Shown in pieces: positions 13,492 through 53,750 of a DNA stretch of 64,000 nt (position 1 is its first letter; each line of letters starts with the position of its first letter). The stretch spans positions 1,488,001-1,552,000 of the forward strand of contig OX597840.1 in NCBI GenBank assembly GCA_951406725.2, written 5' to 3'. Under the pieces are notes generated by a model. It was given only the letters and a program-made list of their open reading frames with translations, was not told where the DNA came from and did not search any database. Origin of the DNA: Octopus vulgaris. Lineage: Eukaryota. A program made the position numbers and the translations under genes.

Positions 13492-13781
13492 AAAGTTAAT
13501 CCAAATATGAAAGCACAAAAAACACAACAACGCGAGGACGTGGAACAAATATAGTATTATTGGACGCTCAGGAAAGAAGGAGAGTTTAACGTTTCGAGCG
13601 GAGCTCTTCGTCGGAAACATAGGAGAAGGAAAGATCCAGAGAAGAGAAGACAGAGGAAAAAATCACACGCGGTCATATATATATATATATATATATATGT
13701 GACCGCGTGTGTACCGTTGGCGATTTTTTCCTCTGTCTTCTCTTCTCTGGATCTTTCCTTCTCCTATCTTTCCTTCTCCTA
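13492..13781. mobile_element. Hammerhead-bearing short element family A (minus, 13492-13675) plus an inverted partial copy (13699-13781) around a (TA)n spacer
   Basis: Matches copies at 36548, 47476, 47776 and 53551; the two arms are reverse complements across 13675-13698. Confidence 0.8.
13584..13618 (-). ncRNA. Minimal type I hammerhead ribozyme motif (U4C core variant)
   Basis: Minus strand reads GUUU-CCGACGA-A-GAGC-UCC-GCUC-GAAA-C-GUU-AAAC: stem I GUUU/AAAC, stem II GAGC/GCUC, palindromic ACGU stem III. Confidence 0.7.
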
Positions 13782-14076
13782 TATATACAGAGAGAGAGAG
13801 AGAGAGAGAGAGAGAGAGAGAGAGTTGTATGCATGTACGTTTGTGTGTATATTTTTCTGTGTATGTATTTGTCTCCGATCACCGCCTTACCACCATTGTT
13901 CAAAGTTCCGCAAACGAAATAGAATAAATACAAATTTTTGGAAACAAATAAATCGTAAGGTCGATTCGTTCGAGTAACATTGCTCAATGCCGTGTCCCAG
14001 CATGGACGCAAATCTAATGACTCACACAAGTAAATGATAAAATATAGAGTACGGTTTTACGTTTCCTTTTTATTTA

Positions 14077-14589
14077 TCTATATATATAAAACTGTAGTTG
14101 TGTGAGTGTCTGTCTCCTACGATTTAGATTCCTAACTCTTCCCACATTTTGCGGTGCAGTTTAACCAAATTCGGGTATTTTATAGTCGTGATTAATATCG
14201 AGCCCGTCTGAGTATTAGCGCGCGTCTACGATGAGTCTACGATTTTAAAAATAATTTAATATCATTTTTTATTCCATTTTAATGCATAATTTTTCGCGTG
14301 TCGATGGCGGCAGAGTTGGCGTCCATTGTCACACCTGCACCTGTTTGCTTCTCCCCCTTCTTCCCTCCCTCGTGAAGCTGTGGGGAAGGGAGTTGAAGGA
14401 AATCAACGTCGTAATGCGTTGTCAAGGAGACCAGCGTTCTATTAGAACAACGACTTCATGGCTTGAAGACACCAAAACCGAAATGGCTAAGAAAGCCCGA
14501 ATTGGCATCTATAAAGGAAGTAACTCCCTAAAAATGCGTATATAGTTATTTCCCTTACAAACCCGAGCAACGCCGGGCGATACTGCTAG
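14077..14589 (+). mobile_element. Non-autonomous Helitron with both termini (~513 bp)
   Basis: 5' A|TCTATATATATAAAA, subterminal hairpin cccgagcaacgccggg, 3' CTAG|T; inserted at an AT site with no TSD. Confidence 0.85.
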
Positions 14590-14829
14590 TCTATTATAAA
14601 CCGTCTTCTTGTCTTTTCCTCTGATTTAAGTTTTCTAAACGTTTCTAAGGTTTGAGGCTGTTCTTACTGTTGTTTCTGTTGTTGGGCTTGGTATTTTGGT
14701 GTTTGGATATTACATCGTTTTGGATTTTCACGTTCCGTTGCTGCTGTTGCAGATAAAACATGCTGTTTATTGTTACACTGATGTTTGCTGGAGATGTTGA
14801 TGTTGTAGGAGATGACGCGGATTAGATGC

Positions 14830-15285
14830 TGCTGCTGATGATGACGGTTGTGGTGGTGGTGGTGACATTGACGACGATAATGTCGGTGATGTTCGCGTTA
14901 TTGTTGGTAATGATGATCCTATTAGTGATAATGTTTGGAATGCTGATGATGTCGATGATGACGATGAAGGGGATGATGATGATGATAATGATGATGATGA
15001 TGAGGTGGAGTAAGATAATGACGAAGAAGATGAGGAAGGTAATGATAGTGATGATGATGATTATAATGATGATGATGATAATAACGATGATGAGGATGAG
15101 GATGATGGGGAGGATAATGACGGTGAGAATGAGGATGAGGATGATGATAGATGATGAGGATGAGGATGATGCTGACAACGATGATGAAGATGATGATGAT
15201 TATGAAGATGATGATGATTTTGATGATTTTGATGATGATGATGATGATGATGATGATGATCATAATCATGATCAAGATGAAGATC
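14830..15285. repeat. Degenerate (GAT)n
   Basis: Direct trinucleotide tract. Confidence 0.9.
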
Positions 15286-15629
15286 CAATAACTTTAACAG
15301 AAAAAAAAGGCAGAGAATTCTACAACGAACCTGTACTGATTTGTTTTTTTTTTATTGCCAGAAGGGCGACGAATGAACGACATTACATTGGCAATTAATA
15401 TAACAATGAATGACGATGAGGATATATATTACGCTTCGGCTAACATTGCTGCTGCACTTGCTGCAGATGTTGCCGAGGAGAAGTATAGGGAGAATGTGCA
15501 AAGGTAGGGGTGGGAGTAGGTCTAAATGTAACAAGAGCATAGGGAGGGGGAACGGGGCTGATTTGGAATGGCTACAAGGACAACAAGAGTAATGAACACT
15601 TACGACTGAATGCCTACCATCTTTGTTAA

Positions 15630-49981: not shown

Positions 49982-50442
49982 TGCTTGTTTCAGTCCTAAG
50001 ACTGCGGCCATGCTGGAGTACCGCCTTGAAGAATTTTAGTCGAAACATTCGTCCCCAGAAATTTATATTCTTTTTTTTAAAGCCTTGTGCTTAATCTATT
50101 GGTCTCTTTCAACGAACCGCTTAGCTACAGGGACGTAAATATACCAACATCAGTTGATAACAGGTGGCAAAGGGGCCAAACCGAGACAAAAACACTCATT
50201 CACACACATACATACACATGTATACGTATATATATATATATATATATATATATATATATATATACATATATATATATATATTTACAGAGAGAGAGAGAGG
50301 CGAGGTTTATGTCAGTTTCCATCTACCAAATCCACTCACTATGTATTAGTCGGCCCGAGGCTATATTAAAGCACATTCGCCCAGTAGGACTGAATCCGTA
50401 ACCATGTGGTTGGCAAGCGACCAAACAATCACGCCTATACCT
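49982..50442 (-). mobile_element. SINE family 2, diverged
   Basis: gactgcggccatgctggag..gaaccgcttag..ctaccaaatccactcac..accatgtggttggcaagc. Confidence 0.8.
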
Positions 50443-51416
50443 CTGTAAAGCGTTTGATATTCTATAAACAGGTATACCCTGATATTATTAGCTGTATTCC
50501 GGATAGTATTGTGTGATAAAAGTGGACCTTTGAAATGTAACCAAAATCTATTGGACGTTCTTTTACTTAATTTCGGTCTAACCAACTTCGATCACATAGT
50601 TCGGAATAACACGAGTCTAGAGCAAAAATACCGAAAATATCACACAACGGAATCAAACCAATGATTTCGCAATTCTGTAGTAACCGTTGTATCCATTTGG
50701 CCATGTTTTCTACAGCCCTGCATATTCACATTACTGATATCTAACCATTAGTTGTGCCGGTACGCTAAAGGTTATGTTTGAGAACATAGTTGAGAATAAT
50801 ACTGTAGCATAGCGGACATATTTCCGTACTTGCCAAAACAATGTCATCAACATTTGCAATTGATTAATACGCTTTTTCCTCATGGTTAATCATTTAAATA
50901 CGTTAGCACTAACTTTTCGATTCACTCCCCAGCACATAAATACATTCGAATGTGCACACATACCATATATACATGTTTGTACTTAGTAGGATACACTGAC
51001 GCAACAAATACGAGTTGGTACTCAGGAACGAATATTTACTTACTGTAAAAATTAATTTGAATATTTGCATATATAAAGATATCTGAAAATAAAATATTGG
51101 ATTAATAGCAAAAAGGTGCAACCACGCAAAACACGTTTGCACGCACCACTTTGGGATGGTATGAGGAACATTAACAGCCGTGCATGCTTGTATAATTCAC
51201 TTGTAAAACAGGCTGCTGAGCAGACCAGAGAGAGTTTTTGTTTTATAAATAAAATCACAAAACATGATATGAGCGCTTACATGAACATAGAGTCAGAGAA
51301 GACTCTAGTGATGAGGCTAACTTCTAATTGGCTTGTCTGAGAATATAGTCATATAAAGATCAAAAGTAAAAATACAAAAGGAAACGTGAATAAACAGAAA
51401 AGGGAAGACAAACTCA

Positions 51417-52084
51417 GTGTTGGGAATGCACAAAGATGTTAGTATAACAATTTATTAAGTTAAATTAATATTAAGTAGGTGTCAAAATACGAATATATAT
51501 ATATATATATATATATATATATATATATATATATATATATATATATATATATATGAATATATATGCATATACAGATGCATCCACAGAAATATAGGCATGA
51601 ACACTGTCCTCTACATATTTGTACAGATGAATACATATATATATATATATATATATATATATATATATATATATATATATGTATATATATATGTATGTAT
51701 ATATATGTATATATATATGTCTATCTATATATCTTTCTATCTATCTATCTATATCTCTCTATATATATATAGAGAGAGAGAGATAGATAAATAAATATAT
51801 ATATGGATAGACAGATATATACATATTCATGTGTACAAATACGTGTGCTGTGGATACATATATATATGCATATATATATATATATTTATATATATACTAT
51901 TTATATATGTATGTATGTACATGCATGTATATGACTCTCTATATATCTATATATATATATATATATATATATATATATATATATATATCCATACATATGT
52001 ATATATATTCGTATATCGACACCTAATTAATATTAATTTACATTATTAAGTTGTTATACTCTCATTTTAGTGCATTCCCAACAC
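51417..52084. repeat. ~80-bp diverged inverted arms enclosing a (TA)n-rich interior
   Basis: 51417-51497 vs 52003-52084 (gtgttgggaatgcac..agtataacaa..taaattaatattaa.taggtgtc..atacgaat). Confidence 0.85.
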
Positions 52085-53550
52085 ACATACACACACACAC
52101 ATATATATATATATATACTTATTTATATATGTGTATAAATCGATATATATATGTATACTTATTTATATATGTGTATAAATCGATATATATATATATATAT
52201 ATATACATACATATATAGATACATATAGAGGGACAAACATATATACGATCCTATTTTAGTAATGGAGATTAATATTTAATATATATTAAATGTTACTGAC
52301 ATCTACTTTAAAGATTAAAACAAAATTCTCAGCAATCGATAATAATAATTATGAAATCCTATTTTCCTCATCATCAACTCCCATACACCAGCTGAAAGAA
52401 AATATTATTTCCGAATAATTTAAATGCGTGTGTGTGTGTCTGTGTGTGTGTGTGTGTGTGTGTGTTTGTGTGTGTGTAAGACTGTTGTAGTTCGCTTGAA
52501 GCACTCTAATATCGAAGAGTGAAAATAGAAGCTTCTGTCAATGGAGAAATTTTAATGTGAGCCTTTATATTTCAAGGCGCAAACGCCCCTATTCAATAGA
52601 AAACCACAGTCTTGAGAAAAATCCAGTTATTCAGTTAGGGTCCACTTATACCTACGTAAGTAGGCTTCTCTCAATGTTGTTCACTTCTTCTGAAGATGGG
52701 CTTTGTGTCTGAAATATAAAGGATTTATGAAGCGTTCCGCAATATCACAAGCTTCTATTTACTCCGTTTTTGCCTTCTTCAAAACAAGCACAACACACGC
52801 ACACACACACACACAAACACACGCACACACACACACATACGTACACACACACGTACACGTATTTGCATCCATGAGGTAGTCTTCGATTGTTTTCTCCAAA
52901 GAGTATTTGAAGCCCATATTTAAATAGCATCGATTATAGATGTATTTACTTCGTCATAAACTTTTAAAAACATATTATATATATATATATGGTGCCACAG
53001 TACTGCTTTAGTCTAGTGACTGAAAAGAAGAAAGGCAAAATATAGCAGATATATATATTGAAGTGACAGAAGCTATATTAACACGAGAAAGTAAAATTTA
53101 TTACCACTTAAAACTGGACGTTGAGAAAAAATGTCAACAGGCTTTTGTGGTACATGTTAGCATTCTCTTTTATATCACTAGCAGGACAAAATTACCATTG
53201 TCCCCATGATTACGGCCTTCTTTGGCATTCTCAGTGATGGGCTTCTGACAACGAACCGTGGTAACGATTCCGCTTGCAATCTATATAGCATCACAGAGCC
53301 CTATACAAAAAACAATGAAATCCAAGGAATATATTATTATTACGAGAATTTATCACTCATGAAAAGAAGATGATGTGCGATACAGCGATATGTATATATA
53401 TATATATATATATATATATATATATATATATATATATATATATATATATATATATATGTACATATATATATATGTATGTATATGTACGTATATCTATCTA
53501 GCTTCTACCTATGTATATCTATATATATATTTTATATAGATATACATGTT

Positions 53551-53750
53551 GTGACGCGTGTGCACCGTTGGCGATTTTTTTCCCTCTGTCTGCCCTTCTC
53601 TGGATCTTTCCGTCTCCTATGTTTCCGACGAAGTGCTCCGCTCGAAATGTTAAACCCTCCCTCTTCCCTGAGCGTCCAATAATACTATATTTGTTCCATG
53701 TCTTCGCGTTGTTGTGTTTTTTTTGTGCTTTCTTGTTTGGATTAACTAAC
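53551..53750 (+). mobile_element. Family A element, apparently full length (~200 bp), with a mutated hammerhead at 53621-53655
   Basis: Starts gtgacgcgtgtgcaccgttggcgattttt like 13699; ends ggattaactaac followed by (TA)n. Confidence 0.8.

Follow-up and report, generated by a model that had tools for sequence, protein, structure and literature searches.

Short Hammerhead-Motif Repeats of Octopus vulgaris as Detached Terminal Repeats of a Penelope-Like Element

A 64,000-nucleotide stretch of Octopus vulgaris DNA (GenBank assembly GCA_951406725.2, contig OX597840.1, positions 1,488,001 to 1,552,000; hereafter the window, with coordinates counted from its first letter) holds five related copies of a repeat of about 200 bases, which are 83%–91% identical in pairs, carry a hammerhead-like motif, and run into (TA)n. 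We are close to certain that these repeats, here called family A, are detached pseudo-long terminal repeats (pLTRs) of a Penelope-like element (PLE) whose full-length copies lie elsewhere in the genome. A preliminary description made from the window had taken them for a free-standing non-autonomous family; the unit proves instead to be the pLTR of an autonomous element encoding a reverse transcriptase (RT) and a GIY-YIG endonuclease (EN), and in a tree the solo copies are interleaved with copies linked to its open reading frame (ORF). The repeats are probably solo pLTRs left by this Neptune-type PLE as by-products of its own target-primed reverse transcription. The analysis indicates that thousands of 200-nt repeats embedded in (TA)n in this genome represent termini of PLEs, and annotation should label them accordingly.

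The Parent Element

No parent ORF or untranslated region (UTR) was found when one was looked for in the window. Across the genome searched (2.8 Gb in 227 contigs), sequence extending upstream of the unit was seen in two of the 30 best relatives, and nine loci were walked further upstream from extended copies. At locus L061, half of an RT, a linker of the form CxxxxCxxC, and a GIY-YIG region lie on the unit's strand about 2 kb before the unit, which extends into a (CA)-rich 3' UTR. The peptide from this locus has 10,124 candidate matches in the genome, and of the 150 that were scored many lie in open frames of 800–1,009 aa. The unit stands on both sides of the ORF at L108, L109, and L113, where it is 82%–89% identical to window copy 1. 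In the genome, 74 matches were found to the sequence that joins the unit to the 5' UTR, and five of the 20 junction loci fetched (L146, L147, L149, L153, and L158) have the order pLTR-ORF-pLTR, with hammerheads 4.5–6.5 kb apart.

The 816-aa open frame of L109 (P0001) contains DKG and YIDD motifs, a CSRSRCNTC linker, and a GIY-YIG domain with CCHH; the domain lies at residues 721–754 and is thus C-terminal. Its 771 homologues (the best 53%–58% identical) carry both RT and GIY-YIG families and are named as uncharacterised proteins of gastropods, a sea urchin, and a coral, and a PDB search found no relative. The C-terminal position of the GIY-YIG domain rules out the Naiad/Chlamys type, which has an N-terminal endonuclease and no canonical hammerhead. 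A CX2-5CxxC linker between RT and EN is described as a Neptune feature that also occurs in Nematis (PMC8557442). Placed by such published definitions, the parent would be a C-terminal EN+ PLE of the Neptune or Nematis type. Further EN+ PLE traits are present, namely direct pLTR repeats around the ORF, tandem and partial tandem arrays, 5'-truncated copies, and inverted 5' pieces (L120, L121, L124, L132, L144, and window 13698–13773).

Copies in the Window

Copy 1 (13493..13677, minus strand) is a solo pLTR that reaches the 5' start of the unit and has a short internal deletion close to that start. Its predicted minimal type I hammerhead, with a C4 core, spans 13584..13618 (minus strand), with the cut placed by standard hammerhead numbering between 13588 and 13587, and a (TA)n tract (13457..13492) lies at its 3' end. 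Head-to-head with it stands an inverted 5' fragment of the unit (13698..13773, plus strand; 76 nt), which has no hammerhead, is 98% identical to copy 1 over 52 nt, and is separated from it by about 20 nt of TA. This fragment probably belongs to the same insertion event as copy 1 and so is probably not a locus independent of it; it lends little weight to the 5' start first described as shared by two independent loci, 13699 and 53551.

Copies 2 (36549..36725, minus strand; motif 36644–36678; (TA)n 36507–36548) and 3 (47477..47650, minus strand; motif 47574–47608) are 5'-shortened pLTRs. Copy 3 is head-to-head with copy 4 (47777..47957, plus strand; motif 47816–47849), also 5'-shortened and with (TA)n on both sides, whose stem II is damaged by the loss of 1 nt and a C-to-T change. 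Copy 5 (53550..53752, plus strand) is a unit-length solo pLTR with two substitutions in its motif (53621–53655) and (TA)n from 53751. As first reported, the 35-nt motif is exact in three copies (1–3) and altered in the other two, with two mismatches in copy 5, and it gave no match in 100 shuffles. The exact cores in the window number three against 0.13 expected, for a window picked after the fact. All five copies share a terminal octamer that leads into (TA)n, with one octamer substitution in the 47777 copy, which bears out the original account of the 3' ends. The unit 5' start is reached by two of the five, and the other three begin about 70–75 nt before the cut.

Abundance and Ends across the Genome

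The genome contains 5,799 exact matches to a 34-mer core of the motif and 6,957 to a 25-mer that lies downstream of the cut. The 34-mer is present in 22 of the first 90 matches of the 25-mer, from which we estimate about 24,000 copies, a rough figure that assumes the two to decay independently. These first 90 matches, all on one contig (C1), served as a sample with no selection for 5' length; it includes one apparent local duplication (L259 and L260). Mapped against one natural long copy, with 0 at the predicted cut, seven 5' ends lie beyond −113, 59 at −113 to −90 (15 of these at −111 to −109), 14 at −89 to −1, three at 0 to +10, and seven further down. No peak of 5' ends was found at the predicted cut site, within 10 nt of which just 3/90 copies end. 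Longer copies exist: a 33-mer from the upstream extension has 50 exact matches in the genome, and 30 of these 50 loci share from 40 to >1,500 nt of (CA)-rich sequence. The element is therefore discrete, as first described, in having a preferred 5' edge (59/90), but 7/90 copies are longer, 24/90 are shorter, and longer 5'-truncated copies occur. The preliminary description had held scattered 5' ends, as random truncations of a long PLE, to tell against it; such long truncations exist, yet most copies stop at one edge.

The microsatellite targeting proposed at the outset holds up on both sides of the unit, with (TA)3 at the 3' side of 82/90 copies and within 22 nt of the 5' end of 57/83, compared to 365 of 3,000 background windows. 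In the whole genome, (TA)5 is joined exactly to the unit start at 577 loci.

Mini elements, in which the end of a pLTR is followed by 191–475 nt of 5' UTR and a second unit, make up 14 of 30 junction loci (L118, L122, L125, L127, L130, L131, L133–L135, L137, L139–L141, and L143). The second hammerhead follows 253–573 nt after the junction. Their joins, at −63 to −169, are nearly all different; one, which is internally deleted, recurs at three loci on three contigs (L335–L337). Units stacked head-to-tail with TA spacers are also seen behind a full-length or solo copy at L153 (about 6590–7500) and L007.

An Altered Hammerhead Motif

The motif is a candidate hammerhead ribozyme of altered type. 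It has helices I and II, the GAAA, the palindromic 15.2–16.2, and the NUH triplet that mark the minimal type I hammerheads found in PLEs, in agreement with the preliminary description, and matches the published minimal type I consensus except at position 4, where it departs from the CUGANGA core. The C at this position, first noted as universal, is found in all five window copies but not genome-wide: among the 5,799 exact cores about 4,600 (about 80%) have C and 973 have U, and the unselected sample has 53 C and 21 T. The U4 count is far above the 165 cores with the opposite-strand CpG change that serves as a control, so CpG decay as the sole source of U4 copies was rejected, and a U4 subfamily exists.

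Between family A and a sibling subfamily, A' (see below), the core is identical at 33/35 positions and the flanks are 61% and 75% identical, a sign that the motif has been under selection in the source elements. Over 11 motifs from five groups, 98.2% of 109 stem cells are paired. Stem covariation across copies, which the ribozyme proposal had implied, is slight and seen between families only: one stem I pair has changed on both sides, in the related family B. An Rfam scan (E ≤ 1) gave no hammerhead family among the matches listed (150 of 284), only low-complexity miRNA-like ones, and single-strand folding of the five motifs gave no support (z-scores −0.1 to −0.7). In the fold of one whole unit, which is weakly self-paired, stem I has a probability of about 0.02 and stem II of about 0.09; for a dimer, the active fold has −8.1 kcal/mol versus −24.7 for the minimum free energy structure, the active form being disfavoured as monomer or dimer. 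In a viroid, a U4C variant had much lower in vitro activity and still supported infection (PMC3088659).

Sibling Subfamilies and the Solo Excess

Subfamily A', distinguished by a GUC triplet and one stem I mismatch, has 1,512 exact cores, with C at core base 4 in 96 of the first 100 copies. It appears as a young C4-core sibling whose 6.2-kb arrays run head-to-tail and hold open frames of 883–1,009 aa (L101–L103 at G000:C10:97803000-97832700; L104–L105, L106, L110, and L112). Under the same sampling, long copies account for 21/30 in A' (extension of at least 243 nt) and 1/30 in family A (>100 nt; p = 6e-8). Since A' shows ordinary truncation under this sampling, the excess of solo copies is a property of family A.

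A tree was built from 59 solo copies together with 54 that are long or full. Branch support is rough; copies that lack the unit's 5' portion are excluded, one of the long rows occurs twice, window copy 1 carries some flank, and some of the long copies were chosen by a pattern specific to one subfamily. The tree has 22 changes of label, five of them forced by strong branches, and the solos form one clade in 0% of bootstrap trees. This points towards solos as by-products of the parent and leaves room for some re-copying of solos.

A second family, B (window 53931–54096, minus strand, and 56056–56221, plus strand), follows the same hammerhead plan, is diverged, and ends in (TA)n; its core reads CUGUNGA (A6U), its loop II differs, the outer pair of its stem I is C-G, and one of its copies lies about 180 nt from window copy 5. 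Hammerhead-like motifs of other kinds, having longer stems or UUGA..AA cores, often stand beside family A or A' copies (the L102–L103 array end, L210, L156, L040, L173, and the window near 36900, minus strand), a pattern that suggests the stacking of several PLE families at shared (TA)n tracts. Other PLE families, with an A-rich RT, GIY-YIG, and a Cys linker, are inserted near family A copies at L062 (about 2950–5035, strand opposite the unit), L060, and L151.

Origin of the Solo Copies

The derivation of the solos from the parent's own reverse transcription, which we consider probable, can be laid out as follows. An internal promoter would start the RNA at the 5' edge, which lies some 110 nt ahead of the predicted cut; the GIY-YIG domain would nick (TA)n; and the RT would prime within the RNA, where a pLTR ends and the 5' UTR follows it. 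At a pLTR-ORF-pLTR locus the 5' pLTR alone satisfies this, and the product would be a unit that begins at the RNA start and stops where the pLTR ends; from full tandem arrays, such as those of A', long copies would result. A slow or protein-dependent hammerhead would leave mostly uncut RNA to be copied. The observed unit is exactly what an RNA with such a start, primed where the 5' pLTR gives way to the 5' UTR, would yield. It has been reported that the PAc element of the anole nicks AT-rich DNA, primes inside its RNA, and needs RNA 3' of the priming site; that it uses uncut RNA, hammerhead cleavage being dispensable; and that its hammerhead is protein-assisted, with no reads ending at the cut (PMC11167929). 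An internal promoter has been described for Penelope of D. virilis (PMC2377424).

Several observations weigh against this derivation. A TCATTC at the edge, which we take to resemble an initiator, is present in part of the family only. The frames of the full-length family A copies seen are mostly broken into several matching pieces, and the Pfam matches of P0001 (RVT_1, E about 1e-3; GIY-YIG, E about 1e-2) are both under the curated cut-offs. PAc belongs to Poseidon, a clade other than that of the family A parent. In the tree, solos are more clustered than shuffled labels would be (22 changes versus 38), and the median distance from a solo is 0.031 to the nearest solo and 0.037 to the nearest long copy.

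A more specific version of the proposal is tentative, and we would put it forward as a possibility that is less than even: the main product of family A would be a unit-length, promoter-carrying solo pLTR, in the order of 20,000 copies, defined by RNA start and internal priming site and left whole because the U4C hammerhead, conserved through spreading subfamilies, is too slow. If this is true, family A would record internal priming in the genome and stand as the missing step from PLEs to PLE-derived short interspersed elements (SINEs) or retrozymes.

Among other explanations, it is unlikely, though the likeliest of them, that solos are themselves transcribed as far as (UA)n from the promoter inside them and that the PLE protein copies them again in trans, forming a SINE-like non-autonomous family much as the preliminary description proposed. 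The ends would fit this, with 83/90 copies of unit length or shorter and a hard 5' edge, as would the restriction of the solo excess to family A, some solo-rich groups in the tree, and the slightly greater nearness of solos to each other; the mini join found on three contigs implies that short derivatives can move. However, the solos never form one clade, at least five label changes are forced by well-supported branches, and the unit is the pLTR of full-length elements. A solo transcript would also be without the downstream RNA that PAc requires (PMC11167929).

Alternatively, all copies could be ordinary 5' truncations, made from full-length RNA and primed at the 3' pLTR, the edge being a hot spot of RT stalling or template jumping. 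Longer truncated copies do exist, as the 50 upstream 33-mer matches attest, and the mini joins fall around the edge zone. Yet the edge is passed by just 7/90 family A copies, compared to 21/30 in a sibling with a similar UTR, and we regard this explanation as improbable. Spread of the unit as a non-LTR retrozyme, via hammerhead-cut and circularised monomers, recalls the unit size (200–220 nt), the spacing of hammerheads in the 14 minis, and the few local tandems (L007 and L153), but is very hard to credit for dispersed monomers with linear ends away from the cut site, a minimal rather than canonical hammerhead, and a weakly self-paired unit with low-probability ribozyme stems, given that the literature presents retrozymes as tandemly repeated canonical type I hammerheads (PMC7229834).

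Other Features of the Window

Repeat-finder output for the window is dominated by microsatellites. Tandem repeats of non-simple sequence lie at 7281–7582 (159 nt × 1.9 copies) and 28589–29043 (184 nt × 2.5 copies). Near-perfect hairpins of about 90 nt at 43782–43877 and 19197–19289 have non-specific miRNA-family matches in Rfam and are possibly ends of miniature inverted-repeat transposable elements or foldback repeats.

Comparison with Known Systems

This class of element, its type of ribozyme, and its bias towards microsatellites were known before, and PLE pLTR hammerheads, many single truncated copies, and short ribozyme repeats derived from pLTRs are in print (PMC4209133; PMC7229834; bioRxiv 10.64898/2026.07.22.740005; PMC6765202). 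In the literature searched, coverage of which was partial, we found no description of family A, of a U4C core in a PLE, or of a solo-dominated PLE. The role of the PLE hammerhead and the need for a tandem arrangement are treated as open questions (PMC4209133; PMC8557442; PMC11167929), and this genome offers a natural comparison, as its siblings differ in core base 4, cleavage triplet, array structure, and solo versus long products.

The minimal hammerheads that metazoan PLEs carry in their pLTRs, as described by Cervera and de la Pena (2014, PMC4209133), resemble those of family A in that helix I is short, a single unpaired base precedes helix II, G10.1 pairs with C11.1, and the palindromic GAAAC-GU-H is without a stem III loop. 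Their consensus has CUGANGAH and a helix II of 7–8 bp, whereas in family A the base at position 4 is mostly C and helix II has 4 bp. They are mostly single copies attributed to truncated PLEs; unlike them, most family A copies have one unit-length 5' edge. The parent agrees with Neptune and Nematis EN+ PLEs (Craig et al. 2021, PMC8557442) in an RT followed by a C-terminal GIY-YIG, a CX2-5CxxC linker, CCHH, and DKG, and in partial tandems, inverted 5' pieces, and microsatellite bias, and differs from them in a 3' UTR of about 2 kb that is (CA)-rich.

PAc of Anolis carolinensis (Frangieh et al. 2024, PMC11167929) likewise has a hammerhead in its pLTR, AT-rich targets, and no ends at the cut. In contrast, the Neptune-type linker of the family A parent is absent from PAc by clade definition, the hammerhead overlaps the ORF start in PAc and lies well upstream of the ORF in the parent, and the dominant solo product seen here is not reported in the available text on PAc. 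Non-LTR retrozymes (PMC7229834; bioRxiv 10.64898/2026.07.22.740005) share with family A short non-coding units, a type I hammerhead, and a proposed origin from PLE pLTRs; they are tandem repeats of 150–450 bp with canonical hammerheads and circular RNAs, whereas family A consists of monomers dispersed in (TA)n.

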